From positions 360,001 to 392,000 of the forward strand of contig JALHOH010000002.1 in NCBI GenBank assembly GCA_022843095.1: DNA of 32,000 nt. The letters run 5' to 3'. The notes beneath the pieces were generated by a model. It was not told the origin of the DNA, did not search any database, and worked only from the letters and a program-made list of their open reading frames with translations. Within the stretch, counting starts at the first letter, position 1; every line of letters begins with the position of its first letter. Shown piece by piece: positions 915-23,816 of the stretch. This stretch comes from Candidatus Saccharimonadota bacterium. Lineage in GTDB: Bacteria; Patescibacteriota; Patescibacteriia; 2-12-FULL-60-25. Position numbers and translations under genes: made by a program.

Positions 915-916
915 AC

Positions 917-1921: not shown

Positions 1922-1951
1922 ACAGAATGGGACGATTGTACTCGCCGAAAT

Positions 1952-5166: not shown

Positions 5167-5167
5167 A

Positions 5168-6280: not shown

Positions 6281-6301
6281 GCAAACGCACTCCCTGGTGA
6301 C

Positions 6302-8681: not shown

Positions 8682-8689
8682 ACCGTATT

Positions 8690-9955
8690 TTACCGAGGAT
8701 GACACACCTGCAGTCGATCCATCAACGTACACGACAATGATGCATGCACGTCACGATCCCGCGCATCCAACGATGCTTCATCCCACACGATCACAAGATC
8801 TATCGCCTCTTGCGCCTTCGGATCCGTCGGCCATCGTCGCGGCAACGTCAAGAGATGAAACGGAACATCATACGGAAACGTCCCCAACACGGCCACCGTT
8901 TTTCCCTGGACCCGGGCTTGAAGCGCTGCGCCGTGACGCACAAAGAAATCCCGATCCGGTGGCACCAAATGCGTCAGATGCCATCCAAGCGTGACACACG
9001 CAGCAACCGCGAGGACCGGACGAAGCACAAGCGGCCATGCGCGCAACAGCCAAATCAGTGGGAACAGGACGAACCACATCCCATAGGGGCCGTAATAGAT
9101 TGCGGGATTTTTTCCCAGATACAACAAAAGCGGAACGGTCGAAATGCCCCAGAAGAGCCATTCCGCACGTGGAGCGCGCCGATAGCCAACGATGCCTCCG
9201 AAGAGAAGCAGCGGAAGCCACCACGCCCACGGAAGCAGCATCTGCAGACGATCATGAAACGCAATCCCCCGTCCGCCCACGGAAACAAGATCCGCGATGG
9301 CGAGCGGATTTGTCAGCATCCCAAGAACGACCAGCCCCGCTTGGACGCCGGCAATACCATACAGCGCAGCAAGCCACCCATCCTGGCGGAGCGCATCCCG
9401 ATGCCGCCACGCCATCCATACAACAACCGGAACGACTAACATCCCTTGCAACTGCGTCCACACTCCCAACACGGCGCCGAGCAGAAAAAGCGCATGCCCC
9501 TGCACGCGTGATGGTGCGGCCTCGATCTGCCGAAATCCGGCCGCCATCACCATCCATGTCGCCACAAGTGCGATGGGTAAATATCCATCTCGCGTCCAGG
9601 CGATCGTTGTAGGCACAAACGCAAGCACAAGTGCCAGCGCAAACGCCGTCGACCGCGAAACTCCCCGCGCAAGCGCCTCTCGCACGACCCCAGCCGACGC
9701 CATTCCAAGCAAAACCACGAGCGGAAAACGGACCGCCGCATTCCAGGGCCCCACCCAACGATACATCCAGGCCATGACGCTCGTGACGAGCGTTGGATGC
9801 GGAAACTCAATCCCAAGCGCAAACTTCGCCACATCCCCGCTTACATCCCAGGCGTTCAACCAAACGCTCGCAAGCACCACGACCACACCAAACACGCACA
9901 CGGACACAAGGCTATGGGGCAGGGATCTCATATTCGAGCACCACACGTTCTCCAT
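8690..9955 (-). CDS. polytopic membrane protein, putative GT-C fold glycosyltransferase (ArnT/PMT-like)
   Basis: About 10 or more hydrophobic segments. The first loop region WDVSGDVAKFALGIEFPHPTLVTSVMAW resembles the acidic first-loop plus HPP motif of GT39/GT83-type enzymes. ATG at 9955, with an alternative ATG at 9931 (MRSLPH). Either start overlaps the upstream gene's end (9912). The CDS is confident; the function is tentative. Confidence 0.6.
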   Translation of the reverse strand: MENVWCSNMRSLPHSLVSVCVFGVVVVLASVWLNAWDVSGDVAKFALGIEFPHPTLVTSVMAWMYRWVGPWNAAVRFPLVVLLGMASAGVVREALARGVSRSTAFALALVLAFVPTTIAWTRDGYLPIALVATWMVMAAGFRQIEAAPSRVQGHALFLLGAVLGVWTQLQGMLVVPVVVWMAWRHRDALRQDGWLAALYGIAGVQAGLVVLGMLTNPLAIADLVSVGGRGIAFHDRLQMLLPWAWWLPLLLFGGIVGYRRAPRAEWLFWGISTVPLLLYLGKNPAIYYGPYGMWFVLFPLIWLLRAWPLVLRPVLAVAACVTLGWHLTHLVPPDRDFFVRHGAALQARVQGKTVAVLGTFPYDVPFHLLTLPRRWPTDPKAQEAIDLVIVWDEASLDARDRDVHASLSCTLMDRLQVCHPR

Positions 9956-11351
9956 CTAACCGCGAAAGATCGACACGACACCGATCCGCCGCGCACCGCA
10001 AACGATCAAGCCGAACATACGTGAGTCCAATGCCGGATTCCCTGCGATACTGCTCGAGTGTTTTTTGGGTCGCGTGTCGGACGAGGCCTTGTGTATACAA
10101 CGGATGGATCGCCACCACCCGCGCACCAAGCGCACACAGCATCCATCCCGTCACAAGTCCGGCGAGGACGACTGCAAGTATCTTCCCTGTTGGTGGTGGA
10201 GGCATGGCCGTTCTCGCTCGCGTCGCCTGATCCAACATCTGCTGCACGCGCTTCGCGATTCCGTCCCACTGATACCGCGCACGCACCAACGCCTGTCCCT
10301 GTTTGATCAGCCGCGCACGCAGCGATGGCGTTTCTTGAATCCGACGAACGGCCGCGGCGATCGACGCTGGATCATTGGGTGCTGCAAACACGCCCGTCTC
10401 TCCATCGGTCAAAAACTCCGGAATCCCCCCGACCGGCGTTCCCACAATCGGAACCCCTGCGGCAAGCGCCTCCAAAAAAGAAATGCCCAACCCTTCGGAA
10501 CGCGAGGCGCGAACAAATACATCCGCCGCGTGCAAAACCGACGGGAGATCGGCTTGCGATACTTCTCCCAGCCAAATCACGCGCGACGCGACACCGAGTT
10601 CCTTCGCAAGCGCCTCCAACATCGGACGATCATCCCCCGATCCTGCCACGACTGCGCGGTACCGTTCCGGTAATACGGCAAGCGCACGAATCAGGTCATC
10701 CACGGCGTTTTTTGTCACCAACCGCGACACGGTGCACACCGCAATCTCATCATCCTTCACCCCCCACGAGGCGCGCATCGCCTGACGATCGACTTCCGCC
10801 ATCGGCTTCGCAAACCGTTCCACGTCGACGCCATTTGGCACTACGTCAGACACCCCACAAAACCCCATGCGCGTTGCCCAGCCTTCCAAAAAACGGCTGA
10901 TCGGCAACAACACATCCGCGCGACGAAACACGCGACGCTGCAAGAATCCAAGCATCCCCAACCGTTTAGCGTAGTGCTCCAGCGGATCGCCTTCTTGGAT
11001 AGACAGCACAAACGGCAGGCGCGGAAACCGTCGCAAAAAAAACAGCGCCGCAAACCCTGCGTAACTCGCCAACATGGACCACACCACCCGCACCGGACGT
11101 GCGCGTGCGATGCGCCACCCCTTCCATGCTCCCAAAAATGGAAAAAGGTACTTATCCCACGATCGTCCGAGCCCCACACGATGCACCATCACGTTTCCGA
11201 TGCGTTCAGTGTCCGACAATCCCGGACGCAACCGCGCGCAAATCAACTCCACCTCCCATCCCTGCAGACGATCCGTGATTTCCCGTATCGCAACCTCTGC
11301 CCCGCCGACAAGCGGTGCATACGCCACGGAAAACACGAGCACGCGCTTCAT
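9912..11351 (-). CDS. glycosyltransferase family 4 with C-terminal transmembrane anchor
   Basis: The N-terminus is [20 protein letters not shown] and the GT4 signature is [35 protein letters not shown]. After a PPPP linker comes a hydrophobic helix ([27 protein letters not shown]) and a tail of about 70 aa. ATG start overlaps the UXS stop as ATGA (11348-11351). Confidence 0.85.
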
Positions 11352-12292
11352 ACCGCCAGTGTGTGCTTGAAGTAGGCGATGGTTTTTTCAAGCCCCTGCC
11401 GAAGCGGAACGGTTGGCTCCCAGGCAAGTTCTTGCTTGGCGAGTGTGATGTCTGCCTGACGTTGCTTGGGATCATGCGCAACGGGCGGCAAATGAACGAT
11501 TTTAGACGATGATCCCGTCATTTCGATCACGATCTTCGCCAGTTCTCCAATCGTAAACTCCCCAGGATTCCCGATATTTACCGGGCCCGTAAACCCCTCT
11601 TTCTGCATCATTCGCATCATCCCTTCCACCAAGTCATCCACGTACTGAAACGAACGCGTGTACGAACCGTCCCCATACACCGTCAGATCCTCCCCTTTCA
11701 GCGCCTGCAAAATAAAATTGGATACCACACGCCCATCATCCGGCGCCATCCGCGGGCCATAGGTATTGAAGATACGGATCACGCGCACATCCACCCCGTA
11801 TTCACGATGGTAATCAAAACACAGCGTCTCAGCGCAGCGCTTGCCCTCATCGTAACAAGCGCGACGCGACGTCGGATCCACGTTACCCCAATACGTTTCT
11901 TTTTGCGGATGTTCCAGCGGATCGCCGTAGACTTCCGACGTCGAGGCCTGAAAAATCCGGGCACCCGTTGCCTTCGCGAGCTCAAGCATGTGGATCATCC
12001 CCATCACATTTGTCCGCACCGTCGCAACCGGATCATGTTGGTAATGTTTTGGAGACGCCGGACAGGCAAGGTTAAAAATCCAATCCACGGGCATGAAAAA
12101 CGGCTCTTGCACATCGCGGATGAGAAGCGAAAACCGCGGATGCGCCTTCAAGTGCTCCACGTTTGAGACGGATCCCGTAAACAGATTATCCAACACCGTC
12201 ACGGTGTGCCCTTCCGCAAGCAACCGATCACAGAGATGCGACCCCACAAATCCCGCTCCGCCGGTCACAAGAACGCGTTTTGATGCAGACAT
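11348..12292 (-). CDS. uxs: UDP-glucuronate decarboxylase (UDP-xylose synthase)
   Basis: Near full-length match to the UXS family as I know it: [47 protein letters not shown] (YxxxK) and [10 protein letters not shown]. 314 aa, ATG start. Confidence 0.9.
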
Positions 12293-12295
12293 ACG

Positions 12296-14143
12296 TTACG
12301 ACAAATCAGTAAGCCACGTGGCCAAAGCATACAGCATCCACAACCGGTTGCCATGGTCTTCCCCGCGATCGTTTCTGGCCAAATACCCCTGCACCCCCTC
12401 CTTGCGGCACACGCGCGCAAGCGGACTCGATGCCGAAAGGCACCGCGCCACAAACGCCTCGCGCAGCGGCCCGCGAAACCACGTCGCAAGCGGCACCTGA
12501 AACCCGCGCTTTGGCCGCGAAAACACCGCATCCGGCACACAACCCCGCATCGCATCGCGCAACAGCGGCTTCACGGAATGCCCGTCGAACACCATCGACG
12601 CCGGCAATCGCGCGACAAATCGCAACACCTCCTGATCCAGAAACGGCGCGCGTGCCTCAAGTCCGTGCGCCATGGTGGCACGATCCATCTTTACATTCAG
12701 ATCATCTGGAAGATAGGAGTCTCGATCAAACAACCACGCACCCTTCACCCCTTCTTGTTCGGCATACCGCTCGACAATGAACTCGGTCGGTGTCGAGGTG
12801 ATTTCGGCCAAAAACTCCGGCGTACACAACGCGGCCTGTTCCGCAGCCGAAAAATAGGATCCCTGAAATAACGCGGCGTATCCCTCTGCCGTCGAACGCC
12901 GAATGCCAGAAAGCGTCTCTGCCATGCGTCCAAAACGCGGATCCCGAAGCACAGCCCCACCTAATCGCGCGACCGGCGCAGCCATTCCGGCAATCGACTT
13001 CCATGCAAGCGCCTGCGCAAAATGACGATAGCGGCGATATCCCGCAAACGCCTCATCTCCCCCATCCCCGGTCAGAACCGCTTTGACATGCTTTTTCGTG
13101 TGCTGTGCCAGCAACCAACTCGGCAACGCAGAAGAATCCGCGTACGGCGCGTCGTAGTGCCGGATGACCGTGTCCGCGATCCCAAGAATCTGTTCCGGCG
13201 TCACCAAAAACGCGTGGTGCGTCGTCCCAAATTGCTTCGCAAGCGCCGCTGCTTCCGCACGTTCATCAAACCGCGGATCCGCAAATCCGATGGTAAAGGT
13301 CTGAAGATGCGAGACGGATTGCGCGGCCAGGGCGACCACGCTCGCGGAATCCACGCCTCCGGACAAGAATGCGCCGACCGGCACATCCGCAATCAACCGC
13401 AACTGGACCGCCTCTTCCAACAATCGCCGAACTTCACGCACCGCCTCTTCTCGGGATCCAGAAAAAACCGGCGTTGTTCCAAAGGTATCGTACGATTCAA
13501 TCGTCAGCGTTCCGTTCTGCAAGAAGGCGCAATGCGCCGGAGGCAACGTCCGAATCCCCTGAAACCCCGTCCACGGAGCCGGGACATACTGAAGCCCCAA
13601 AAAAAGGCGGACCGCTTCAAAGTCCGGCGATGCGGGCGCATCCTGAATTAACGCCTTCAGTTCTGACGCAAAGGTAAACACCCCACGCGCTTCACGATAA
13701 TACAACGGCTTCTTTCCGATTCGATCGCGCGCAAAAAACACAGCACCCGTCTCACGATCATGAATAGCGAAGGCAAACATCCCGCGCAAACGCGGGAGCA
13801 TCGCTTTTCCTTCCCGCGCAAACAGCTGCAGCAACACTTCCGTATCCGACGTCGAACGAAACGTCGCCCCTTGATTCGCAAGCTCCGTACGTAACGCCTG
13901 ATAGTTGTAGATCTCTCCGTTGAAGGTGATGGTATACCGACCCGAAGGATCTTGCATCGGCTGCGCGCCACTTGGATGAAGATCAACTAACGCCAGCCGG
14001 CGATGCGCAAACCCCACGTTCGCGTGACACCAAATCCCTGCGCCTTCCGGTCCACGATGCGCAAGCGCGTCAGCCATGCGACGCAACCGGTCTTCGCGGA
14101 CCGGGACCCCTTCTTTCTGCAAAATCCCTGCAATCCCGCACAT
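12296..14143 (-). CDS. asnB: asparagine synthase (glutamine-hydrolysing) family amidotransferase
   Basis: The Ntn nucleophile is at MCGIAGIL (Cys2) and the PP-loop is FLSGGVDSASV. At 615 aa it is typical of the AsnB family. ATG start at 14143. Confidence 0.9.
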   Translation of the reverse strand: MCGIAGILQKEGVPVREDRLRRMADALAHRGPEGAGIWCHANVGFAHRRLALVDLHPSGAQPMQDPSGRYTITFNGEIYNYQALRTELANQGATFRSTSDTEVLLQLFAREGKAMLPRLRGMFAFAIHDRETGAVFFARDRIGKKPLYYREARGVFTFASELKALIQDAPASPDFEAVRLFLGLQYVPAPWTGFQGIRTLPPAHCAFLQNGTLTIESYDTFGTTPVFSGSREEAVREVRRLLEEAVQLRLIADVPVGAFLSGGVDSASVVALAAQSVSHLQTFTIGFADPRFDERAEAAALAKQFGTTHHAFLVTPEQILGIADTVIRHYDAPYADSSALPSWLLAQHTKKHVKAVLTGDGGDEAFAGYRRYRHFAQALAWKSIAGMAAPVARLGGAVLRDPRFGRMAETLSGIRRSTAEGYAALFQGSYFSAAEQAALCTPEFLAEITSTPTEFIVERYAEQEGVKGAWLFDRDSYLPDDLNVKMDRATMAHGLEARAPFLDQEVLRFVARLPASMVFDGHSVKPLLRDAMRGCVPDAVFSRPKRGFQVPLATWFRGPLREAFVARCLSASSPLARVCRKEGVQGYLARNDRGEDHGNRLWMLYALATWLTDLS

Positions 14144-14193
14144 ATCAAGAGGCGCCTATAGACGCCGTATCCGCTCCATCCTATCCTTTCCCC

Positions 14194-15342
14194 ATGGAAT
14201 CCGCAAAAAAACACGTGGTTTTGGCCGTGACGCTTGCCGAACCCGGAGGTGTCCAGTCATTTTTGCTTGCCTTCGCGGAATGGCTGCGGACGAAGGGGCA
14301 TGACGTCACGATCGTCGCTGGTGACGGGATGTGGCTCTACGCCCAATGCCGTGTGCGCGGGATTCGCACAGTGCAACTTCGCCACCTCAAACGAAACATC
14401 TCTCCCCTGGAAGATCTGCGTGCCATCCGCGAATGCGCACGCGTGTTTGCGGAGCTCAAACCCGACGCCATCCATCTTAACAGCAGCAAAATGGGGGCGA
14501 TTGGGGCCCTCGCCACCGCCCGCATCCATCCAAAACCCCGCACTGTGTACCGCATTGGCGGCTGGGTCTTTTTGGAACCACTATCTGCCTGGAAACGCTG
14601 GCTCTACACCTGGATCGAACGAAAAACGGCGTCCAAGAAAGATGCGATCATCTGCGTTCATCCCGGCGATGCACAGGCGGCCGCGCAGAGAGGGATCACC
14701 CCACGTGAATCCATCGAGGTCGTCCCTAATGGGATTGATCTTCCTACCTTTCGGAGCCAACTGCTGGATCGCGAAACAGCGCGAGCAACGCTCGGAGTAC
14801 CGGCGGATGCGCGCGTATTTGGCACGATTGCGCATTTCTACCCACCCAAAGATCTTCCGCGCTACATGGAGGCTTGCAGCATCGTGGCACGCGCCATCCC
14901 AACAGCACGATTTGTGCTCGTCGGAGACGGGATGGAACGGCCAGCCATCGAAGCAGCGGCGCGCACGCACCAGGTGGATCGTCAGGTCCTGTTTGCCGGG
15001 GCACGCGATCATGCATCGCGTCTCCTTCGCGCGTTTGACACCTTTGTCCTCCCAAGCGCCAAAGAAGGGATGCCTTGGTCGGTCCTGGAAGCCATGGCTG
15101 CCGAAATTCCCTGCGTCGTGACCGACGTCGGCGCAAACCGCTGGATGCTAGAAGATGGCGCCGCTGGATGGATCGTGCTGCCACAGCACCCCGTCGCGCT
15201 TGCAAACGCCATGCAAGAGGCGCTGAACAATGCAGACGCGAGAGCAGAAAAAACGCGCCGGGCGATGCAGATCATCCAGACGCGTTTTCCTTTGGAGCGC
15301 ACGTTCCAAGAGAACGCGCGCATACTACTTGGTCGCCGTTAA
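14194..15342 (+). CDS. glycosyltransferase family 4
   Basis: ATG at 14194 (MESAKKHVVLAVTLAEPGGVQSF) is the first possible start after the divergent asnB start. The track start at 13972 is TTG, antisense inside asnB. The GT4 signature is FVLPSAKEGMPWSVLEAMAAEIPCVVTDVG. Confidence 0.85.
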   Translation: MESAKKHVVLAVTLAEPGGVQSFLLAFAEWLRTKGHDVTIVAGDGMWLYAQCRVRGIRTVQLRHLKRNISPLEDLRAIRECARVFAELKPDAIHLNSSKMGAIGALATARIHPKPRTVYRIGGWVFLEPLSAWKRWLYTWIERKTASKKDAIICVHPGDAQAAAQRGITPRESIEVVPNGIDLPTFRSQLLDRETARATLGVPADARVFGTIAHFYPPKDLPRYMEACSIVARAIPTARFVLVGDGMERPAIEAAARTHQVDRQVLFAGARDHASRLLRAFDTFVLPSAKEGMPWSVLEAMAAEIPCVVTDVGANRWMLEDGAAGWIVLPQHPVALANAMQEALNNADARAEKTRRAMQIIQTRFPLERTFQENARILLGRR

Positions 15343-17648
15343 CGACGCGGACCGCGAGAAGGGGTCGTGGTCGCAACCGGCTTGGTCGTGGACGGAGCCG
15401 GTGGAGTCGCAACCGGAATGGTCGTTGTCGCGGCCCCCGTTTCCTTGAACAGACTGTACGCGCGATGCACATCCGGACGACGGACCGCAGCGAGTTCGAG
15501 TACTTTGTCGCGTACCTCCGGCATGCCGCTTTGCTCAAAGCGTGATGCCGCTTTGACGAAGAAGGCGTCGTCTTCTCCCGCGATTTCTTTGGAGAAGGTT
15601 TTCTCGATCGCCTTCATCGCCTCCTCCTTTGGACGCACGACCGCAGCTTCAACCAGCAAACCAGCCTCTTGCGTGTTTCGCAGTTGGTACGGATACGCGA
15701 CCGTGACCGCCCGCAGCACCTCTGGCGCACCGTCTGCCGGACGCTGCAAATCCGCAAACAAGATCGCCCCCTTAATCCAAATCGGTTCGCCAAGCTCCGG
15801 ATCAAGTGCAATGACCTTGTCGTAAAGATTCATCGCCTCCTCTACCTTGCCAAACCGGAGATACAAGCTCGCCAAGCCGTAGAACACCTGCTGACGTTCC
15901 GGTGACGATTGCATGGCGCGCAGATATTCCTGCTCGGATTGCGCGGCATATTCTGGCTTCACGCGAGACAATTCCTGCAAAAACCGCGCATACAAGAATC
16001 GTGCGTGCGTATCGTTTGGATGGCGTGCAAAGTGTTCCGCATTCAAGGCGAGCGTCAGGTCCACCCAGCGCTGCGGCTGATACAATTTTTCGTACACGCC
16101 GGTCGATAACGCCTGCACCAAATTGCGGGAGTTCAAGAAGGTTTGCTCGTCCAGATAGGGCGTCCACCGCTTATTCGCCTCCTCTGCCCACGCGAGTCCC
16201 TGCTGCGTGCCATATGCCGCATTCGACATGAGCGCAAACTGCGAGGCACGGAACGGGATCACACTCGTGCGCCAGACCAGAACAAGTGCGGCGACGTAAA
16301 GCAGGGTGGCGAAGGTGAGCGGAAACCCGTGACGTTCCCCCTCGGTCGCGGGCGGGGTATTTTTCATGAACCCCTCCGTCGTCGCCGCGATCACCAACGC
16401 AAACAGCAGGTAACTCATGGAAAACCCTGCCGGGTGATCGAACACAAACAGGTTCTGCACAAAATACGCGAGTGGAAGCGCAGCCAAAACCGCCGCAAAC
16501 CGGACATCCAACCACCCGGCACGAAACGCCCGCCACAGCGAATGATACAGAACGGCAAACACGGCGATGAAGGTGATGAGCCCAAACAGTCCGGTCATCG
16601 AAAGGACGTCCATCACCGTGTTGTGTGCTCGATCAAACCACGTTTCATAGGCACCAAACCGCAAGGTCTCCGCAGGATACTTGAGGTTGAAAAGAATGTG
16701 GTAGTTATCAAACCCCCACCCCGTTAGTGGACGTTCTTTGAACCCTTCCCAGGCAATATTCCAGGCGTTTAAACGCGTCGCCACCGTCGCCTTCACATCG
16801 ACGAAACGCGCAAGCACCGACCGCGTCTCGATGAGATAATCGCGCATCGCAAAGAGCGTGCCGTATCCCGCAACAAGCGCAAGCAGCGCTCCTGCCGTCG
16901 CAAACCGCACCTTCTTTTGTTTGCTGAATATACCGACAAACAGGAAAAACGTGATGATCCCAATCGTCAGTCCCACCAATGCCCCACGGGACTGGGCGTT
17001 GATAAATGCCCCGATATCGACAATGGCGATCATCCCGTACCAGAGCCACAATCGGCGTGACTTTGTATGAAGTGCAAGAAGCGCCAAGAAAAACAGGTTA
17101 AAGATCTGATACGCTCCCATGTAAATCGGGTTGTCCAGCAACCCCCCAACGCGCGGACCCTGCACTTCAAACAGCAACAGATTTGGAATGGCGCGCTGCA
17201 AAATCGCAACAATCGCCATGAATCCGGACAAGACGACCTGATAATTCAACAAGCGCTTCCAATCATCCCATGTCTTTAAAAGCGATGTGGTCATCGTCAA
17301 CCACGCGAAAAAATGGAGCAATGTAAACAACCCGTTCATGCGCTCTTGGTTTCCCCACCAGGCTCGATAGGGATCTACGGCAAAGGCAACAGAGGTCGCG
17401 ATCGCCACAAAATATGCAAAGATCGCAAAATACAACCGGTGACCGCGCGGACGCATCTCTGGCTCCATCCACGCAAGCAGGAGATATGCCGGGAACGTTA
17501 CCCCAATCAACACCTGAAAGGCGATGAGCTTGGAAAAGACGAACGGAAAAATGACCGTCGGAATAAACACGAGTGGCATGAGCAGACCGCCGTACACCCC
17601 GACATACGTCAGTGCGCGTAGCACCTGGACACTGGTAGAACGATTCAT
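15339..17648 (-). CDS. Wzy_C-type (O-antigen ligase-like) polytopic membrane protein fused to C-terminal TPR repeats
   Basis: About 12 hydrophobic helices. Family-typical motifs are NAQSRGALVGL, RPLTGWGFDNYHILF and RAHNTVMDVLSMTGLFG. The C-terminal ~300 aa are helical-repeat/TPR-like (FYGLASLYLRFGKVEEAMNLYDKVIALDP) and end in a Thr/Pro-rich tail. The track start at 17690 is TTG; ATG at 17648 (MNRSTS) is preferred, and either is possible. Confidence 0.8.
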   Translation of the reverse strand: MNRSTSVQVLRALTYVGVYGGLLMPLVFIPTVIFPFVFSKLIAFQVLIGVTFPAYLLLAWMEPEMRPRGHRLYFAIFAYFVAIATSVAFAVDPYRAWWGNQERMNGLFTLLHFFAWLTMTTSLLKTWDDWKRLLNYQVVLSGFMAIVAILQRAIPNLLLFEVQGPRVGGLLDNPIYMGAYQIFNLFFLALLALHTKSRRLWLWYGMIAIVDIGAFINAQSRGALVGLTIGIITFFLFVGIFSKQKKVRFATAGALLALVAGYGTLFAMRDYLIETRSVLARFVDVKATVATRLNAWNIAWEGFKERPLTGWGFDNYHILFNLKYPAETLRFGAYETWFDRAHNTVMDVLSMTGLFGLITFIAVFAVLYHSLWRAFRAGWLDVRFAAVLAALPLAYFVQNLFVFDHPAGFSMSYLLFALVIAATTEGFMKNTPPATEGERHGFPLTFATLLYVAALVLVWRTSVIPFRASQFALMSNAAYGTQQGLAWAEEANKRWTPYLDEQTFLNSRNLVQALSTGVYEKLYQPQRWVDLTLALNAEHFARHPNDTHARFLYARFLQELSRVKPEYAAQSEQEYLRAMQSSPERQQVFYGLASLYLRFGKVEEAMNLYDKVIALDPELGEPIWIKGAILFADLQRPADGAPEVLRAVTVAYPYQLRNTQEAGLLVEAAVVRPKEEAMKAIEKTFSKEIAGEDDAFFVKAASRFEQSGMPEVRDKVLELAAVRRPDVHRAYSLFKETGAATTTIPVATPPAPSTTKPVATTTPSRGPRR

Positions 17649-17693
17649 AGATCTGCGTCGAAGGGTAACACGCGACCACGGCTGAGACAAAAC

Positions 17694-17717
17694 AAAACAG
17701 CCCCGGAGGGCTGTTTT
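17694..17717 (-). terminator. rho-independent terminator after the 1314-aa gene
   Basis: Perfect inverted repeat aaaacagccc / gggctgtttt (17694-17703 and 17708-17717) around the loop cgga. On the minus transcript the stem is followed by UUUUGUUUUG. It begins 18 nt after the TAA at 17735-17737. Confidence 0.75.
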
Positions 17718-17734
17718 GCTGTTTCCGCGCCGGA

Positions 17735-20700
17735 TTACGGCGTGGTCACCTGGCTCTGCGCAAGGTCCGTCAAGAGGACGTCATCCGTCCAGTCCTGGTT
17801 GCCTTGGCTTGCGCTGCCCGTGTCGGACAGATCAGACCAGACAAACGTACCTGCGACATCCGCCGTGCTGCACGGAGCAGCCGAGGACGTACAGATGTGA
17901 GGACCCGCAAGCGCCAACCCACTGACCGTGGTCGTGGAAGCGCCGTACGTCGTGAAGTAGCCACGCGAGGTGATCGTCGTGTTCGGGTTGGTCAAGAGTT
18001 TGACCGACACCGAGTCACCCGACACCCAGCCGGAGGCGTTCGCGCGGAGCGTGTAGGTCGTACCCGAGCCGGAGATCTGTTCCGGGTTCGTGAATTCGAC
18101 CACCACGTAACCGGTCGACGAAGCCGTGGACCAGGAACCCGCTTCAAGGTCTGCGCCGACACCCGTCACAATGCGGACGTCTGCGAGATCCATGACCTGG
18201 GAACCCTTCATCACACGGAAGCTCGAGAGCGAAAGGTTCGAGCTCGTCGTCGTGCTCTTGTCGAGCTGGAACGACATCTTCTTCACAGCAACCGGGCCCT
18301 GGGCATCAGCCGTGACCTGGAACTTGAAGAGGTCCGTCGTACCACCGAACTTGCCGGAGGTCGCCTGGTACGCCACCGTCGGGCGCGACTTGCGCAAAAC
18401 GAAGGTGTTGCCAACCAATCCGCCCGTCATGTTCGTGGACGTCGCAAGGATGCGATCCCCGGACGCCGCACCGACCGTCTTGATGTTGAACTTGTCGTTG
18501 TACGTGCTGTCGTATTCGCCGGACGTGACGCCCTGCGCAATGCCGAGCTTCACCTGGGAACCCGTGCGAGCAAAGCCCGTCGTGGCACCAGAAGCCGTGG
18601 AAGAAGACTGCACGCCTGCAAACTTCGCCCAGAGTTCGAAGGTGACGGAGCCATCCTTCGGAACCGTGATCGGGGAAGAAAGCGAGATGTCCTTGAACTG
18701 TGCGTTCCCAGCGGAGAGGGTTTCCTGACCGCGGATGGAACCGCCCTGTGCGATCGCGACAGCCGAGAAGACTGCTGCATCGCCCGTCGACGTCACTGCA
18801 ACGCGTTCAAGCGTCACGTTTTCGTACTGCGCGGAGGCGTTGAATTCGGACATCTTGACCCAGGAACCCGTGTTCCCGACACCGATCGTGGATTGCGGCA
18901 TGTTCCCAGCAGCAACCGTGAGGGTCGCGCCGTTCTTCACCGTCACCACAACGGCCGTCGGCGTCGCACCGGCGTTGGACGTCACCGTCCCGCCAAGCGT
19001 GATCGCGCTCGAACCGAGCGTGTTGGAGTCCTGATCCTGCGCCGTGATGTCGGCTGCAGCTGCGATACCGATGGCATACGAGTCACCAGCGGCCTGATCG
19101 ACGACGGAGTCCGCCGTGCACTTCACGAGAAGCGTCTTGGACGTCCCCTTCGTGATGTTCAGGTTCATGTTGGTGATGTTCATGAAGCCACCCGTCGCAT
19201 CTGGGGTCTGAGCAACGCCGACCGCGGTCGCGCCGTCGAACAAACCACACTGCGTCACCACATCATCGAGCTTCGCCAAGTCATACGACCCGGCGTTGTT
19301 GCCGCGACCGGTGAGCTTGAGGGCCGTGATCAACACGTCGCTCTGTTCACCTGCCGTGAGCACGAGACCAACGGATTCAACGTTCTGCTGCTTCTTCACG
19401 ATCGTCATGGACGTCGGGTTAGAAGCGAGCGCAACGCCGAGCGTGGCCTGCTTGACCGTCTGGTTGTTTCCGTTGATCGCCGTGTTCGGGACGATCTTCG
19501 TTGCAGCCAAGAATTCACCCGTGGACACCACGCGGACGTCCGTCGTGTTGAAGAGCTGTTCCCCAGCGGATGCCGTGGAGTCTCCGAGCACGACGCGGTA
19601 CGTGGAGGTACCGGCCAAGAAGTCATCACCGGAGTCCGCCGCGTTCGCGATGTCCGCCGTGATGGCAAGGTTCAAGACCTGACCTGCGTTGATGTTGTAC
19701 GAGTTGTTGATCGTGAGCTGCTGGGAGAAGTTCCCGGAAGCAGAGGCGGACGCGACCGAGCCCAAGTTGATCGGGCCAGCCATCGTCGCACCCGTGTCCA
19801 AGTTCTTCACCTTGATGTCACGGAAGTAGTCCGTGCCACTGGAGCCCTTGATGCGCGACTGTGCACCGCTCACCGTGATCCCTTCAAGCTTGAAGCGCGT
19901 GTTGCGGAGTTCAAGCGTGTTGTCCGGGGACGCGAGCGAGAATTTGAAGAGCGGGATATCCTGTCCACCCTTCATCACGTTCGACGTTGCAGGACCGTTG
20001 AAGGTCACCGTCAACTGACCACCCTGGGTCGTGACTTCGATGTAGTTCGTGGAAGAACCGTCGAAGGAACCCTGAGAAGCCGCGGAGCAACCACCCGTCG
20101 CCGTGGAGGCGATACAGACGGACGCACCGGAGTTGTAGACCTTATCAACCGCATAGACGTCCGTCGTATATTCGACGTAGGTCTTGATCGTGCGCGCAGC
20201 GCGACCACCGACGCGGGCCTTCAAGGAGAAGGTCTTCGTGGTGCCGTTCGCGAGCAAGTACGGCGGGTTGAAGTTCAAGACGATCTGGTTGTTCATCACA
20301 CCAGCCGCCTGCGCCACCAAGGTCGTGCCCTGGTAGAGCTTAAGGTCCGTCAGGTCCGTGTTCGTGATGGAACCGGCCTGGTAAAGCGTGACACGGCGGA
20401 TTTCGACGTCGTTCGTGCCAGCCTGAAGCTTGAAGTTGGAGATTTCCGCTTCCGTCGCCCCGATGTTCGGGTTCGTCGGCTGCGTCCCCTTCGTCACCGT
20501 CAACTGCGAAGCAGAGGCCGTCCCAACCGTGAACACGTTGCCGCGCACCGGGTAGGAACCGCTGATCGTCACGTTGCCAGACACGACCGTGGAGGCCGCA
20601 TCAGAGATTTCGAACGAGTGCTGACCACCCGTCGAACCGGACGCAACGCTGAAGTCACCGACCACGACGACGGAGTACATTCCGTTCGCCGGGACCGAGA

Positions 20701-21679
20701 TGTTGAGGGAGTTGAATTCGACCAAGTTCGTCACCGAGTTGACCGTGCGGCCCGTCGTCAAACGGTTGCCCGCCATGTCATACAGGTAGACGTTCGTGAG
20801 GTCCGAAGAGGAACCCACGCCGACGCGCTTGAGCTTAAGACCCGTGACGCTAACGGAAGAACCGCCAGCAACGAGGTTAAACTTCGCCATCTGGACCGCG
20901 GACGCATTGCGCGTGACCGTGGCGCCAGCCGGCGTGTCGGAAGCCAAGGAGACCGTGAGGCCGCCCGAGACCGGCGCGCCACCTGCACAGACCGCATCCG
21001 CCAAGTTGGCTTCGCGACCCGTGACGGCTGCACCGTCCGTGTAGTTAACCGACGTCGTCAAGACGTTGAGCGCGTTGAAACCGTTCGCCGCGAAGGACGC
21101 ATCGGTCAATGCACGCTTCTGGCCATCCCAGACAACGTAGCGCATGGCCGGGTTGGCCGCGTAGTTGATGAGGGAGCCATTCGGGTGGACCGCCGAGCTG
21201 ATCGACGAGCCAACCGTGTAGTTCACGAAGAAGCCATCCGGTACGTCGACCACTTTCGAGGCCCACGCTGCACCGAACAACGCCGTCGCGACTGCTTCGG
21301 ACTCAACCCAGTGAAGGACACCGCAGCGCGTAACCGCGTAGACCTTCGGGTCGGTCGTGATTTTGACAAGCTTCGTGCCCGGGCGAATGGTGACGTTACC
21401 GCCGATCGCGATCGCCGCGAGTTCTGCGTCCGTGATGGTCTTCACGGTCGAGAAATCGTTGAACCACGAGAAGTACGTCTTTTCGTTCGGGAACACGTAG
21501 CGCTTCTGATCGTTGCCGTAGTAATAAACGGCCGGACCGCTCGCCTTGATGAGGTCGCCGGAGGCAAGTGTGGCCGCGGACACCGCCGTTGGCAGTGCAA
21601 ACGTACCGACACCGACCGTCGACAGGACCGTCGTCATCGAGACGAATCCAGAAACGACTTTCTTAAAGAGATTATCCAT
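17735..21679 (-). CDS. giant secreted repeat protein (1314 aa), putative surface-layer/cell-envelope protein
   Basis: ATG start. The N-terminal hydrophobic signal is VLSTVGVGTFALPTAVSA|A. The composition is Thr/Ser/Val/Gly/Ala/Asn-rich, beta-type, with very few Cys. At least six modules of about 150-180 aa recur, starting near aa 240, 392, 556, 746, 919 and 1100. I recognise no enzyme motif. Confidence 0.85.
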   Translation of the reverse strand: MDNLFKKVVSGFVSMTTVLSTVGVGTFALPTAVSAATLASGDLIKASGPAVYYYGNDQKRYVFPNEKTYFSWFNDFSTVKTITDAELAAIAIGGNVTIRPGTKLVKITTDPKVYAVTRCGVLHWVESEAVATALFGAAWASKVVDVPDGFFVNYTVGSSISSAVHPNGSLINYAANPAMRYVVWDGQKRALTDASFAANGFNALNVLTTSVNYTDGAAVTGREANLADAVCAGGAPVSGGLTVSLASDTPAGATVTRNASAVQMAKFNLVAGGSSVSVTGLKLKRVGVGSSSDLTNVYLYDMAGNRLTTGRTVNSVTNLVEFNSLNISVPANGMYSVVVVGDFSVASGSTGGQHSFEISDAASTVVSGNVTISGSYPVRGNVFTVGTASASQLTVTKGTQPTNPNIGATEAEISNFKLQAGTNDVEIRRVTLYQAGSITNTDLTDLKLYQGTTLVAQAAGVMNNQIVLNFNPPYLLANGTTKTFSLKARVGGRAARTIKTYVEYTTDVYAVDKVYNSGASVCIASTATGGCSAASQGSFDGSSTNYIEVTTQGGQLTVTFNGPATSNVMKGGQDIPLFKFSLASPDNTLELRNTRFKLEGITVSGAQSRIKGSSGTDYFRDIKVKNLDTGATMAGPINLGSVASASASGNFSQQLTINNSYNINAGQVLNLAITADIANAADSGDDFLAGTSTYRVVLGDSTASAGEQLFNTTDVRVVSTGEFLAATKIVPNTAINGNNQTVKQATLGVALASNPTSMTIVKKQQNVESVGLVLTAGEQSDVLITALKLTGRGNNAGSYDLAKLDDVVTQCGLFDGATAVGVAQTPDATGGFMNITNMNLNITKGTSKTLLVKCTADSVVDQAAGDSYAIGIAAAADITAQDQDSNTLGSSAITLGGTVTSNAGATPTAVVVTVKNGATLTVAAGNMPQSTIGVGNTGSWVKMSEFNASAQYENVTLERVAVTSTGDAAVFSAVAIAQGGSIRGQETLSAGNAQFKDISLSSPITVPKDGSVTFELWAKFAGVQSSSTASGATTGFARTGSQVKLGIAQGVTSGEYDSTYNDKFNIKTVGAASGDRILATSTNMTGGLVGNTFVLRKSRPTVAYQATSGKFGGTTDLFKFQVTADAQGPVAVKKMSFQLDKSTTTSSNLSLSSFRVMKGSQVMDLADVRIVTGVGADLEAGSWSTASSTGYVVVEFTNPEQISGSGTTYTLRANASGWVSGDSVSVKLLTNPNTTITSRGYFTTYGASTTTVSGLALAGPHICTSSAAPCSTADVAGTFVWSDLSDTGSASQGNQDWTDDVLLTDLAQSQVTTP

Positions 21680-21856
21680 AGTGAACCGTTCGGTTCTTTG
21701 TTGCCCTAGAAGATCCTTTTGGGATCGGATCTAAAGCGAGATTGCAGATGAATAACCGGGACTATTGGCACATCGCGTTTCCGCGACGCTCGACCTTGAG
21801 CAGCCGTCCCGAGAGGCAACAACACGAGCGGGCAGATAGCCCTTCCCGTTCGGAAA

Positions 21857-21914
21857 GGTTCCCCACCCGACAGGGCGACCATGCAGGCATCGTCGCCCTG
21901 CTCCCTGGGGAACC
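21857..21914 (-). terminator. 58-nt nested GC-rich hairpin 3 nt after the anti-sigma-like gene stop (possible terminator or RNA element)
   Basis: The outer arms are ggttcccc (21857-21864) and ggggaacc (21907-21914), and the inner arms are cagggcgac (21871-21879) and gtcgccctg (21892-21900). They are separated by a symmetric 6x6 internal loop. The apical atgc/gcat pairing closes the structure. On the minus transcript only UUUCC follows, so the U-tract is weak. Confidence 0.4.
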
Positions 21915-21917
21915 ATC

Positions 21918-23102
21918 CTAGCGCGTTGTTGTCGTTGCATCCGTTACAGAAGTATTCGTTGATGTGGATCCGGAGGTAGATGTAGATCCTTCAACCGGCA
22001 AAATACTAGTAGATGTCGTCGCGGATGCGGCTACGCTTGCCGTCGTACTTGCCACCACCATCGATTTCGCCACGGTATCCACACTCACGACCGTCTTCAC
22101 CGTACTAGAAAGCGCGTCCTTCACCTCGACGAGACGATTTTCTTCAAGTAATTGCTCTGTTTTCTGAAGAACCGTCTCTGCTTGCTGGATCCGAGAGAAT
22201 GTGGAGCTTACCGATTCTTTGTTCAGCACATCCGGCGTGGTCGAGGTCGGGAGCAACGAGGCGGTGGAGGTTGAAATACCCGCGTCCGCCAACTTCCCCG
22301 CAGTTTCCGCGATCCCTTCTTTCAACCCTTCGACCTTGTTTTTTAAGCTCTCCTTCAGCTCTACCGCGGTAAACAGCGTCGACAACCGATCCGGATCAAC
22401 CTCGATGATCACCTCGATCGCCTTCACCCCCGTGTCAACCGCCGCAACCTGCGCTTCCATCACCTTCTGCTTTGTTTCCTGATCTTCTCCTACCGCCGCT
22501 TTGATCGTTTTTAATTCAGTTGCAATGGCTGCCGTTGTTTGATCGACCGCCTTGGCCGCTTCGACCGCGCGCGTCTCTTGCTTCACCTCTTGCAACTGCG
22601 CATTCACGGTGTTCAGATCACGTTTCAAGATCTCCGTAGCCTCTTTGATCCGCGCCTGTTTTTTTGGAACATCGGAGGTAGCAAGGGTTTTGAGCTCAAC
22701 CACACGACGCGTCACGAATTCTGATTTGAGCTTCAATCGATCCGTTTTGTCTTTGGTAAAGACCAATCGCGTTTGTTCAGCCGCCAATTTTACGGGATAG
22801 AGCCAATCACCGGGAAGTGCGGTTTCTGCTGCCGAAACGCTTGCGATGGAACCGCCCAAGATAACCGCGATCGTAGAAAGACTTGCGATGACCGAACCTC
22901 CTACTGCCCGCACTGCTCGGGATGGGCTAAAGAGGCGAAGCCATTCTGCCCAGGGACGCTCAGGCGCTAGATTGGCGAATGGCATTTCTTTTTCTACCTT
23001 CTTCAAGAACTCCGTCCGTGCACGCGAAAACCACGCGGGATCCGGCTGGATCTCGCGTGTCAGGCGGCGCACATCGCGCCGAGTGAAGCGTGCATCTGAC
23101 AT
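21918..23102 (-). CDS. single-pass membrane protein, DUF5667-like putative anti-sigma factor
   Basis: ATG at 23102, 11 nt after the sigma gene's stop. It has a cytoplasmic N-terminus of about 60 aa and one TM helix (VGGSVIASLSTIAVILGGSIASV). A long helical ectodomain follows, starting LPGDWLYPVKLAAEQTRLVF, which matches the pattern I associate with DUF5667. The C-terminal tail is Ser/Thr-rich. There is no HxxxCxxC zinc motif. Confidence 0.7.
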   Translation of the reverse strand: MSDARFTRRDVRRLTREIQPDPAWFSRARTEFLKKVEKEMPFANLAPERPWAEWLRLFSPSRAVRAVGGSVIASLSTIAVILGGSIASVSAAETALPGDWLYPVKLAAEQTRLVFTKDKTDRLKLKSEFVTRRVVELKTLATSDVPKKQARIKEATEILKRDLNTVNAQLQEVKQETRAVEAAKAVDQTTAAIATELKTIKAAVGEDQETKQKVMEAQVAAVDTGVKAIEVIIEVDPDRLSTLFTAVELKESLKNKVEGLKEGIAETAGKLADAGISTSTASLLPTSTTPDVLNKESVSSTFSRIQQAETVLQKTEQLLEENRLVEVKDALSSTVKTVVSVDTVAKSMVVASTTASVAASATTSTSILPVEGSTSTSGSTSTNTSVTDATTTTR

Positions 23103-23113
23103 GAAGAATGTGG

Positions 23114-23692
23114 TTATCCCCCCTCCGATACCCCTTCCAATGCCTTCACCGCTCGATGATAGATGACGCGGACATGGCCTGGTGTTTTTTGCAGAACCGA
23201 TCCAATTTCGTCGTAACTCAGCCCTTCGATGAGCCGAAGATGCAACACGTCTTGAAAGTCCTCCTTTAGCGCGGCAATGCGACGGATCAGCAGACTTAAT
23301 TCTGCCTGCGCTTCCGTCTGCGTCGCTCCACGCCCCCGATCCGTAAACACCGTTTCAGTATCAGTAGACGGAAGATCAGGGGAAAATGTTACAACTTCTG
23401 AAACCGCCAGAACCGTTTGCGCGTGTTCTCGATAATAATCTGCAATCAAATGACGTAGCGTTTGATATAAAAATGCCCGAAGATGCTGGATCGGTTTACG
23501 GGCTTTCAAATGCTCCCATGTACGCAAAAATACCTCAGACGCGATCTCTTCGGCCTGTTCTTTTGCCGGCACTTTCAAATAGGCGTAGCGATACATCGCT
23601 ACCGCATACCGGTCATAGATACGACCAAAAGCCGCCGCATCCCGCTTTACGCGGATTCGGTATAAGTAATACGAATCAACAAAGGAAAACAT
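23114..23692 (-). CDS. RNA polymerase sigma-70 family factor, ECF-type (regions 2 and 4 only)
   Basis: Region 2 is FGRIYDRYAVAMYRYAYLKV...AEEIASEVFLRTWEHL. The region 4 HTH is VLHLRLIEGLSYDEIGSVLQKTPGHVRVIYHRAVKAL. 192 aa, ATG start with GGGGAGG 7 nt upstream. Confidence 0.9.
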   Translation of the reverse strand: MFSFVDSYYLYRIRVKRDAAAFGRIYDRYAVAMYRYAYLKVPAKEQAEEIASEVFLRTWEHLKARKPIQHLRAFLYQTLRHLIADYYREHAQTVLAVSEVVTFSPDLPSTDTETVFTDRGRGATQTEAQAELSLLIRRIAALKEDFQDVLHLRLIEGLSYDEIGSVLQKTPGHVRVIYHRAVKALEGVSEGG

Positions 23693-23730
23693 TTGTCATG
23701 CCTCCCCGCAAACAACAACACGTTCATTGA

Positions 23731-23759
23731 ACCCTACCAAATGAAGCCATTTTTCGCAA
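23731..23759 (-). promoter_or_regulatory. candidate sigma70-type promoter of the sigma/anti-sigma operon
   Basis: The minus strand reads TTGCGA (23759-23754), a 17-nt spacer, then TAGGGT (23736-23731). A GGAGG RBS lies at 23701-23705 (plus-strand cctcc). The promoter sits immediately downstream of a terminator. This is a motif match by eye only. Confidence 0.4.
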
Positions 23760-23779: not shown

Positions 23780-23816
23780 AAAAAATGCCTCATCTTGTGC
23801 AAGACGAAGCATTTTT
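23780..23816 (-). terminator. rho-independent terminator after the GT4 gene 23841-24971
   Basis: The minus transcript reads AAAAAUGCUUCGUCUU-GCAC-AAGAUGAGGCAUUUUUUG. The stem has two G-U pairs and is followed by a U6 tract. It starts about 25 nt after the TAG at 23841-23843. Confidence 0.7.

Follow-up and report, generated by a model that had tools for sequence, protein, structure and literature searches.

The window analysed here, a stretch of 32,000 nucleotides (nt) from a Candidatus Saccharimonadota bacterium (GenBank assembly GCA_022843095.1, contig JALHOH010000002.1, positions 360,001 to 392,000), carries on its minus strand a series of genes that, with a probability of roughly 0.55, constitutes a cell-surface coat operon of Patescibacteria. 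An extracytoplasmic-function (ECF) sigma factor would control the gene of a giant secreted coat protein, and a polytopic membrane protein that joins a Wzy_C domain to tetratricopeptide repeats (Wzy_C-TPR) would glycosylate the coat. The reading draws on a gene neighbourhood kept among relatives, an ECF-type promoter motif embedded in the sigma gene, a covarying leader RNA between the regulator and giant genes, and the predicted architecture and codon usage of the giant protein. The main parts are the following.

23731-23759, minus strand: candidate sigma-70-like promoter TTGCGA-N17-TAGGGT (TTGCGA at 23759-23754, TAGGGT at 23736-23731)
23701-23707, minus strand: Shine-Dalgarno sequence GGGGAGG of the sigma gene, 8 nt before its ATG at 23692
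23114-23692, minus strand: ECF-type sigma factor of 192 amino acids (aa), with sigma2 at residues 25-91 and sigma4 at residues 134-185
23366-23393, minus strand: ECF-type promoter motif TGTAAC-N17-CGTCT, within the codons of the sigma2-sigma4 linker (residues 100-109)
21918-23102, minus strand: single-pass membrane protein of 394 aa with a DUF5667 domain (PF18915, E 5e-10), a candidate anti-sigma factor
21680-21917, minus strand: conserved structured leader RNA of 238 nt, defined by an alignment of 47 leaders
17735-21679, minus strand: giant secreted protein of 1314 aa, with a signal peptide at residues 1-35 (cleavage site VSA/A)
20960-21574, minus strand: three-repeat anchor module of the giant protein, residues 36-240
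Residues ~240-1250 of the giant protein: six beta-sandwich domains, with a conserved C-terminal tail beyond
17694-17717, minus strand: intrinsic terminator after the giant gene, a perfect 10-bp stem (AAAACAGCCC/TCCG/GGGCTGTTTT) followed by a T-run
15339-17648, minus strand: Wzy_C-TPR polytopic membrane protein of 769 aa (Wzy_C E 8e-17)

Relatives of the giant protein were sought in one genome per GTDB species, which gave at least 557 loci; 80 of these were fetched and searched with the proteins of the window by tblastn, and neighbours were counted at loci with at least 42% identity to the giant protein and enough flanking sequence. Among these close relatives the sigma gene lies directly upstream of the giant gene in 65 of 65 loci and the DUF5667 gene in 64 of 65, while the Wzy_C-TPR gene and, in the same orientation as in the window, a convergent GT4 glycosyltransferase gene follow directly downstream in 55 of 55; behind the latter, relatives usually carry AsnB, an epimerase and GT4 genes. 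The recurrence of the four-gene arrangement in 55-65 independent species-level genomes is more than chance would give. The sigma and DUF5667 genes are mostly separated by -4 to +9 nt (-4 nt in 20 of 69 loci, 11 nt in the window), the DUF5667 and giant genes by a median of about 255 nt and never by less than 83 nt, and the giant and Wzy_C-TPR genes by 47 to 3135 nt. Nine distant loci (29-39% identity) retain the trio of sigma, DUF5667 and giant genes and still keep sugar genes nearby. Since the trio persists there without an adjacent Wzy_C-TPR gene, it is the deep core of the locus, and Wzy_C-TPR is a clade-level addition. Further open reading frames (ORFs) with giant-like segments or encoding secreted proteins stand in tandem behind the first giant gene of distant loci (L070, 3186-9440; L073, 10001-19726; L077, 9352-15582; L080, 2155-9432), with subtilase-like N-termini among those of L073 and L079, which suggests paralogue arrays or accessory surface proteins.

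An earlier note on this DNA, made from the letters and their open reading frames, had described a sigma factor, an anti-sigma-like protein, a giant secreted protein and a Wzy_C-TPR ligase as one co-directional module. All eight features that it listed were found in place, and profile searches bear out its Sigma70_r2/r4, DUF5667 and Wzy_C domain calls. The four-gene order that it proposed to look for in related genomes is kept in the close relatives, but in distant clades it shrinks to the trio. The listed genes do share the minus strand; the terminator after the giant gene nevertheless divides them into at least two transcription units, and with the glycosyltransferase genes that were said to follow they do not form one co-directional unit, because the first of these (13972-15342) lies convergently on the opposite strand. 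The promoter-like motif ahead of the sigma gene is present and of the same quality as those ahead of orthologous sigma genes, but it is weak and is not scored by a simple sigma-70 scan.

From its sequence and its structural model, the giant protein looks like a structural protein of the cell surface, abundant and anchored to the wall. Its homologues number more than 1494, all annotated as 'hypothetical' and all from Patescibacteria or Candidatus Uhrbacteria, and share 50-66% identity with it over the full length (~1300 aa). The genome to which the window belongs is Patescibacterial and Candidatus Uhrbacteria-like. The mature protein has a pI of 5.4, 22% Ser + Thr, 8 Cys and no membrane segment besides the signal peptide. 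Residues 36-240 are modelled by AlphaFold (AF2) as three tandem beta/alpha repeats with a mean predicted local distance difference test score (pLDDT) of 92.7. Their best Foldseek matches in the PDB are the periplasmic repeat domains of EccB (E 1.5e-3, probability 0.97), at an identity of 10-13% and a global TM-score of 0.24; no Pfam family covers these residues, and the module is neither SLH nor CWB2. The 205-residue module has matches in 4535 cluster representatives. It is found N- or C-terminally in subtilases and in Big_1, Big_5, invasin, cohesin and DUF3048 proteins; such a distribution, as judged from sequence, is what marks surface-anchoring modules of the SLH or CWB2 type, and it makes this one a candidate phylum-wide wall-anchor domain. 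EccB repeats, which belong to type VII secretion, are thought to contact peptidoglycan. The module resembles them in its fold of three small beta/alpha repeats and differs in its low identity and TM-score and in lacking any other type VII component; its binding to the wall is a prediction. Taken together, the predicted signal peptide and the EccB-like module provide the secretion signal and cell-anchoring domain by which S-layer (surface-layer) proteins are recognised.

The body of the protein (residues 241-1314) is predicted to be all-beta (pLDDT 88.4). Secondary-structure blocks and profile-profile comparison (hhalign) show six domains in it, each of 150-190 residues and four or more of them detectably homologous, and a PDB sequence search with the profile of the giant family found nothing. 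Abundance was gauged by codon bias as a proxy only: the giant gene has an effective number of codons (ENC) of 31.3 and a G+C content at third codon positions (GC3) of 0.79, as against ENC values of 42-55 in the other 22 genes, and its bias exceeds that of both neighbours in 49 of 50 loci. An S-layer reading of the protein is plausible, with evidence of an indirect kind and earlier computational work in its favour. Antisense to the whole gene, an open frame of 1301 codons runs along the plus strand (17804-21709), most likely a by-product of the gene's GC3 and codon bias rather than a gene. A terminator equivalent to that at 17694-17717 lies within 110 nt of the giant stop codon in 44 of 63 loci.

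The sigma factor has the composition of group IV (ECF) sigma factors, with sigma2 and sigma4 domains only in about 190 aa. Sigma70_r2 (E 2e-10), Sigma70_r4 (E 2e-9) and r4_2 all score above their Pfam cut-offs, and the NCBIfam ECF superfamily model TIGR02937 gives 74.9 bits against a cut-off of 42.9. The named ECF subgroups among the NCBIfam equivalog and subfamily models all remain far below cut-off, the best of these sub-threshold matches being the BldN family (90 bits, cut-off 206). In the Uhrbacteria clade, TTGnnn-N17-TAnnnT motifs likewise precede the orthologous sigma genes. A hairpin with a T-run behind it (AATGCTTCGTCTTG...CAAGATGAGGCATTTTTT, ~23781-23816, minus strand) separates the upstream GT4 gene from the sigma promoter, so that the sigma unit appears insulated from transcription entering from upstream.

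Within the sigma gene itself lies TGTAAC-N17-CGTCT, a predicted motif with the 'AAC' -35 and 'CGT' -10 elements of ECF promoters, which occurs once in the window against 0.01 matches expected. The 80 loci, 1.48 Mb in all, yield 63 matches, of which 59 are in or at that gene. A search for AAC/CGT-type motifs finds TGTAAC-N16/17-CGTCT in about 55 loci, with positions of +288 to +300 in the sigma ORF. When 66 sigma genes are aligned by codon, the third-codon positions of residues 100, 101, 108 and 109 hold 1.7-2.0 bits of information; the mean over the alignment is 0.38 bits (sd 0.45), and residue 100 takes 11 different amino acids. The motif is constrained at the nucleotide level, because such values at synonymous sites stand far above that mean. 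A subgroup of loci (L015, L021, L027, L030, L039, L057, L068) has no exact match, and in six loci of the distant clade (L070, L073, L077-L080) the motif lies outside the gene, 32-33 nt upstream of the sigma ATG, the classical autoregulatory position, from which the mRNA would probably be leaderless. Because it sits within the ORF, an embedded promoter can raise downstream genes alone and not the sigma factor; autoregulation of sigma would accordingly not be expected in the window or in the ~55 loci of this kind, and in the Uhrbacteria clade the sigma factor would be made constitutively, its active form raising only genes past codon 110. The form TGTAAC/TGCAAC-N16-17-CGTC is that of Bacillus subtilis sigma-X, -M and -V type promoters, which the motif resembles in its 'AAC' and 'CGT' architecture and spacing; the distant clade shares with them the autoregulatory position upstream of sigma, whereas the promoter of the Uhrbacteria clade lies inside the sigma ORF, an arrangement of which no description was found in the literature.

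The DUF5667 gene stands directly 3' of the sigma gene, with a gap of 11 nt in the window, in the translationally coupled position typical of an anti-sigma gene. Hydropathy divides its product into a cytoplasmic N-terminus of ~60 aa, a hydrophobic segment at ~64-92, a helical ectodomain and a Ser/Thr-rich tail; it contains no Cys, and no mention of DUF5667 was found in the papers searched. In Streptomyces, sigma-BldN and RsbN control the chaplin and rodlin surface-sheath genes. That system likewise pairs an ECF sigma with a single-pass membrane anti-sigma that governs surface-coat structural proteins, roles that are candidate ones here, but the targets of BldN are scattered, each with its own promoter, rather than arranged as a downstream cistron, and the window's sigma factor falls far below the cut-off of the BldN family. 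Ser/Thr/Pro-rich low-complexity tails close both the DUF5667 protein (21918-22100) and Wzy_C-TPR (15339-15440; both minus strand) at the C-terminus and, if they lie outside the membrane, could themselves be O-glycosylation targets or wall-spanning linkers.

The 238 nt between the DUF5667 stop codon and the giant AUG encode a leader RNA with at least five covarying helices, laid out in the window as follows.

21914-21907 paired with 21864-21857, minus strand: P1
21900-21892 paired with 21879-21871, minus strand: P2
21869-21862 paired with 21833-21825, minus strand: P3
21797-21790, minus strand: invariant AAGGTCGA, followed by P4
~21789-21770, minus strand: P4
21755-21749, minus strand: UUAUUCA, an A/U-rich single strand between hairpins
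21737-21703, minus strand: P5, a long two-tier hairpin
21696-21683, minus strand: P6, a short hairpin just 5' of the AUG

In the alignment of 47 leaders, the long hairpin of P1 and P2 begins 4 nt past the DUF5667 stop codon. A G-run pairs either with the 5' C-run, forming P1, or with a downstream GCCCGCUCG block, forming P3, after which come a variable hairpin, a conserved AUCCUCGCC block, AAGGUCG, P4, UUAYUCA, P5 and P6. AAGGUCG is invariant in 47 of the 47 aligned leaders, with P4 immediately after it; as AAGGTCG it is present in 74 leaders, and it was not found as a shared motif upstream of the sigma genes. UUAYUCA, like AAGGUCG, is an invariant single strand. P6 ends 2-6 nt ahead of the AUG, and its 3' arm carries the sole Shine-Dalgarno-like G-run. 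Support differs among the helices: 86% of cells are paired in P2 (~45% in slid controls), with compensatory changes in all 8 pairs; 69% in P1, with double changes in 8 of 10 pairs (from a sequence-only alignment); and 82% in P3, with mostly one-sided changes. P4, P5 and P6 are found with different sequences in nearly all loci, and mean z-scores against shuffled sequences are -4.1 for the P5-P6 part, downstream of UUAYUCA, and -1.9 for the P4 segment. RNAalifold on the raw MAFFT alignment recovered P2 and P3 only, because the variable hairpins are out of register. Rfam gave no match, either across the whole window at gathering thresholds or in 21600-22000 at E up to 10, and no description of this leader was found in the literature.

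Neither the leader nor the final 200 nt of the DUF5667 gene showed a conserved sigma-70-type or ECF-type promoter, and no U-tract terminator lies within the leader. The simplest reading is that leader and giant gene are transcribed together with DUF5667, because helices run from the stop codon to the AUG with no such terminator between them. Leaders of such design, with a processing and stabilising role, are familiar from papBA and from the 5' untranslated regions of S-layer mRNAs. Escherichia coli papBA likewise places a regulator and a very abundant surface-structure gene on one transcript, with differential mRNA stability, and the Lactobacillus slpA and Thermus slpA mRNAs likewise begin with a long, hairpin-rich, stabilising leader. 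The window's leader has no sequence similarity to these elements; the likeness is one of design. When the leader 16-mer CCTGACGGGCGGGGGA was used to scan metagenomes, only 2 of 123 matches preceded a giant gene; the GC-rich pattern matched almost solely by chance, in unrelated genomes, so that the scan has no bearing on specificity. Also seen was a repetitive palindrome rich in G+C (...CCCCCCTCTCCCCCTTGCCCTGACGGGCGGGGGAGAGGGGGG...), of which an unrelated organism (Ga0209721 and related contigs; seen in L086, L091, L119, L126, L134, L137, L143, L144, L147 and L159) has many copies and which contains the 16-mer by chance.

Downstream of the giant gene, Wzy_C-TPR and a set of sugar genes would supply the glycan. 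Their neighbourhood comprises, besides Wzy_C-TPR itself, the following.

17662-17690, minus strand: weak candidate sigma-70-like promoter TTGTCT-N17-TACCCT, which, as suggested by its sequence, may serve Wzy_C-TPR
13972-15342, plus strand: convergent GT4 glycosyltransferase, recognised by Pfam; orientation kept in 55 of 55 loci
213-14143, minus strand: glycan-biosynthesis island, recognised by Pfam and partly conserved downstream in relatives
8690-9955, minus strand: orphan polytopic membrane protein of 421 aa within the island

Wzy_C-TPR belongs to the Wzy_C/O-antigen-ligase superfamily, with ~13 hydrophobic segments and PF04932 at 61.8 bits (cut-off 31.7) over residues 223-375. Its catalytic region matches the WaaL-like structure 7tpg (E 3e-6), the sole solved-structure match for Wzy_C. 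The TPR region (~555-700) matches OGT-type and consensus TPRs and brings TPR_19 barely over its cut-off (25.7 vs 25 bits). A thirteenth helix beyond the WaaL fold of 12 helices, whose C-terminus lies inside, would put the TPR domain outside the membrane. Homologues of this architecture are confined to Patescibacteria, where they are annotated as 'O-antigen ligase family protein'. A Wzy_C domain with C-terminal TPRs is the architecture of protein O-oligosaccharyltransferases (O-OTases) such as WsfB and PglL, and by analogy Wzy_C-TPR may be an O-OTase with the giant protein as acceptor, although O-OTases, WaaL ligases and Wzy polymerases look alike to sequence analysis. A role as lipopolysaccharide ligase is excluded by context, because these cells have no outer membrane (PMC7906910). 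The island encodes an AsnB-type amidotransferase, three epimerase/dehydratases, a GLF-like flavoprotein, four GT4 enzymes, the orphan membrane protein and a methyltransferase. The orphan has no family match and a single homologue (97% identical) among 5.8 billion proteins, a pattern that, by analogy, would be expected of a serotype-specific Wzy- or Wzx-type gene.

The closest known counterparts are the S-layer glycosylation (slg) loci of Firmicutes. WsaB and WsfB, both predicted to be S-layer O-OTases, have a Wzy_C domain; WsfB, like PglL, also has a C-terminal TPR, whereas WsaB has an adjacently encoded TPR protein, WsaA (PMC2943079). In Geobacillus stearothermophilus (sgsE and wsaA-P, with WsaB), the acceptor is a large secreted surface protein whose gene, sgsE, adjoins the slg cluster, and in Paenibacillus alvei (spaA; wsfA-P) both WsfB, with its Wzy_C and C-terminal TPR, and the asparagine-synthase homologue WsfA match genes of the window; the clusters of both species also hold glycosyltransferases, sugar-nucleotide enzymes and methyltransferases, and wsfB is transcribed on its own, like the separate Wzy_C-TPR unit here (PMC2943079). 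By analogy, then, the neighbourhood of Wzy_C-TPR, AsnB, glycosyltransferase and methyltransferase genes follows the slg pattern. The differences are that the present locus comes from another phylum, that its coat protein lacks an SLH domain, that neither a Wzm/Wzt ABC transporter nor a WbaP-type initiating enzyme was recognised in the window, and that the known S-layer genes are monocistronic, with no dedicated sigma/anti-sigma pair (PMC2943079); glycosylation of the giant protein is here suggested by analogy. Cells of the Candidate Phyla Radiation (CPR) lack an outer membrane and carry a periodic surface layer (PMC7906910). Genome scanning has predicted a Patescibacteria S-layer family whose members, 1131-1274 aa long, have six Ig-like domains and would form p6 lattices (bioRxiv 10.1101/2024.05.28.596244), and homologues of that family are among the five most expressed signal-peptide genes of two Paceibacteria (PMC10936435). 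Its members (A0A1G2EN61, A0A0G1WWP5 and GMX59286.1 among them) share with the giant protein the phylum, a similar size (1131-1274 vs 1314 aa), a signal peptide and six Ig-like domains, and both families appear numerous across Patescibacterial classes. Full-length body homology to the giant protein was found in 44 of 149 anchor-module representatives, of 1140-1540 aa with one 857-aa exception. By size and domain description, the basis of the comparison, the giant protein is very probably a member of the preprint's family; the preprint gives no account of a sigma/DUF5667 operon, a leader RNA or a Wzy_C-TPR neighbour.

Against these precedents, the earlier note was wrong in knowing of no characterised system with such a composition. 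The Geobacillus S-layer gene beside its slg cluster with a Wzy_C O-OTase is known, as are WsfB, with Wzy_C and C-terminal TPR, and WsfA from the P. alvei slg locus (PMC2943079), and a Patescibacteria S-layer family of this size with six Ig-like domains had already been predicted (bioRxiv 10.1101/2024.05.28.596244). An S-layer gene beside a glycosylation locus is thus of a known kind. What is new lies in the pairing of ECF sigma and DUF5667 within the operon, the promoter inside the sigma gene, the structured leader and an anchor module that had no name. Of the note's proposals, only the coupling of sigma and anti-sigma appears to be new, and the literature yielded no account of such a pair in one operon with an S-layer gene. 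Two proposals of the note gain ground. Its view of the giant protein as coat protein agrees with the signal peptide, the mobile anchor, the six beta-sandwich domains, the acidic pI and the extreme codon bias, and the structure prediction that it called for yielded a confident anchor model and an all-beta body of six domains. The suggested coupling of the sigma pair to expression of the giant gene is in line with their physical linkage, a leader that starts right past the DUF5667 stop codon and the failure to find an independent promoter; as predicted from sequence, the regulatory link appears strengthened by the co-transcription argument and the embedded ECF promoter.

As we picture the coat operon at work, the ECF sigma would be made from a weak housekeeping-type promoter and kept inactive by the co-translated DUF5667 single-pass membrane protein. 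Once freed, it would fire TGTAAC-N17-CGTCT within its own coding sequence, giving a transcript that omits functional sigma, spans DUF5667, the 238-nt leader and the giant gene, and stops at the 17694-17717 terminator. The leader would act as a processing or stability element and in translation control, its last hairpin covering the weak ribosome-binding site of the giant gene, and would allow the structural gene product to rise far above the regulators. The giant protein would be exported by Sec and held to the wall by its N-terminal module, and its six beta-sandwich domains would form the periodic surface layer observed on CPR cells. Wzy_C-TPR, from its own transcript, and the island would assemble a lipid-linked glycan that would be moved outside the membrane, most likely onto the coat protein, on the model of WsfB/WsaB-type S-layer O-glycosylation. 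A more ambitious version, a surface-layer homeostat, is unlikely to hold in full: in it the DUF5667 ectodomain would sense the coat or wall and free the sigma factor, the intragenic promoter would raise anti-sigma and coat but never sigma, a switchable or pseudoknotted P1/P3 leader would set the stoichiometry, and Wzy_C-TPR would O-glycosylate the six-domain coat.

Several observations weigh against the coat-operon reading. A Pfam scan of DUF5667 residues 1-93 at E up to 10 returned no anti-sigma family (ASD, zf-HC2 or RskA_N). In no clade does an ECF motif (TGTAAC..CGTC) lie directly upstream of the giant gene, so that sigma control of that gene rests on inferred read-through. Foldseek on the giant body gave generic Ig chains only and no S-layer-specific match, and S-layer proteins are usually poorly conserved, unlike a family of 50-66% identity. 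Wzy_C-TPR is a separate transcription unit, because a strong terminator follows the giant gene, and in the nine distant loci it does not adjoin that gene; the window has no recognisable flippase or initiating phosphoglycosyltransferase; and TPR domains are also common in scaffolds for the export of polysaccharides and exopolysaccharides.

The points on Wzy_C-TPR lead to an alternative that we regard as a real possibility, if a doubtful one on balance, namely that Wzy_C-TPR, as a polymerase or as a wall or lipid ligase, joins the sugar island in making not a coat glycan but a capsular or secondary cell-wall polysaccharide. A wall-polysaccharide role fits the data equally well as glycosylation of the giant protein does: the Wzy_C family includes polymerases and lipid ligases, the sole match to a solved structure is WaaL-like, TPR domains are frequent in exopolysaccharide export scaffolds, the gene is transcribed separately behind the terminator, and in distant clades sugar genes stay near the giant gene without it. 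The anchor module, common to thousands of surface proteins, implies a shared wall ligand, which could be this very polymer, as with SLH and secondary cell-wall polysaccharide in Bacillus or CWB2 and polysaccharide II in Clostridioides. It is the Wzy_C and C-terminal TPR architecture, as in the S-layer O-OTase WsfB and in PglL, that speaks for a coat glycan instead, together with the adjacency of Wzy_C-TPR and giant gene in 55 of 55 close relatives and an orphan polytopic membrane protein in the island that might be the polymerase itself. That the giant protein is an abundant wall-anchored adhesin or a fibril for host attachment, without a lattice, is unlikely, though adhesin-like Ig chains such as PrgB and integrins are its best Foldseek matches, its conservation is unusually high for an S-layer protein, Patescibacteria are episymbionts (PMC7906910), and Kuroda et al. 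read highly expressed Ig-like and peptidoglycan-binding proteins as attachment factors (PMC10936435). A coat accounts better for a length and architecture uniform over hundreds of species, for the extreme codon bias and for an anchor shared with accessory surface proteins, which mirrors the pattern of S-layer and S-layer-associated proteins; a six-Ig family of the same size is predicted to form p6 lattices (bioRxiv 10.1101/2024.05.28.596244).

The regulatory half of the reading has rivals of its own. The sigma/DUF5667 pair might not control the giant gene at all, the latter having its own promoter in the spacer, the 5' hairpins being the 3' end of the regulator transcript and the neighbourhood being kept for other reasons. 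Apart from the missing TGTAAC..CGTC motif, Firmicutes offer the precedent of monocistronic S-layer genes (PMC2943079), and the invariant AAGGTCGA has a GTC core, with AAC-N16-GTCG in a few distant loci. As a promoter of the giant gene, however, ATCCTCGC-N-AAGGTCGA was rejected: the spacing from the conserved upstream block varies between 11 and 17 nt and exceeds 40 nt in three loci, and covarying P4 begins at most 3 nt past AAGGTCG, which implies that the region is transcribed from further upstream. With no conserved sigma-70-type motif in the spacer or the DUF5667 3' end, no U-tract terminator in the leader, and the trio kept down to 29% identity, an independent promoter seems improbable. More doubtful still is a leader that forms a new class of ligand- or protein-responsive riboregulator, in which an exclusive P1/P3 switch, rather than a passive stability element, gates the coat gene. 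P1 and P3 do use the same G-run, each with support, the single-stranded blocks are highly conserved (AAGGUCG in 47/47 leaders) and Rfam has no match; yet the P3 changes are mostly one-sided, the support for P1 is moderate (69% paired, sequence-only alignment), and neither a terminator nor another clear expression platform is present.

Further out, the region upstream of the sigma gene holds a GT4 gene, a UPF0102 gene, methyltransferases, two unknown ORFs and secA, and the 661-aa protein of 27641-29626 shows no relation to the giant protein. Many of the GTDB representative records (L001, L002, L004, L011, L012 and others) are titled 'uncultured Gammaproteobacteria bacterium' (metagenome-assembled, TPA_asm), and those of L059 and L079 are titled Methylomirabilis and Kapaibacterium despite a Patescibacteria locus; these are probably mislabelled or contaminated bins.

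Much of bacterial diversity belongs to the Patescibacteria, on whose cells periodic surface layers are seen by microscopy. The locus offers, in at least 557 species-level genomes, a set of testable parts: a candidate coat protein, an anchor module, an ECF sigma/membrane pair, a leader RNA and a WsfB-like transferase. An ECF promoter buried in the coding sequence of its own sigma factor would be an unusual circuit design, and the coat-operon reading, if true, would tie envelope sensing to S-layer supply in organisms that so far cannot be grown alone. Should the homeostat version also prove true, the locus would give the Candidate Phyla Radiation its first regulated S-layer glycoprotein system.

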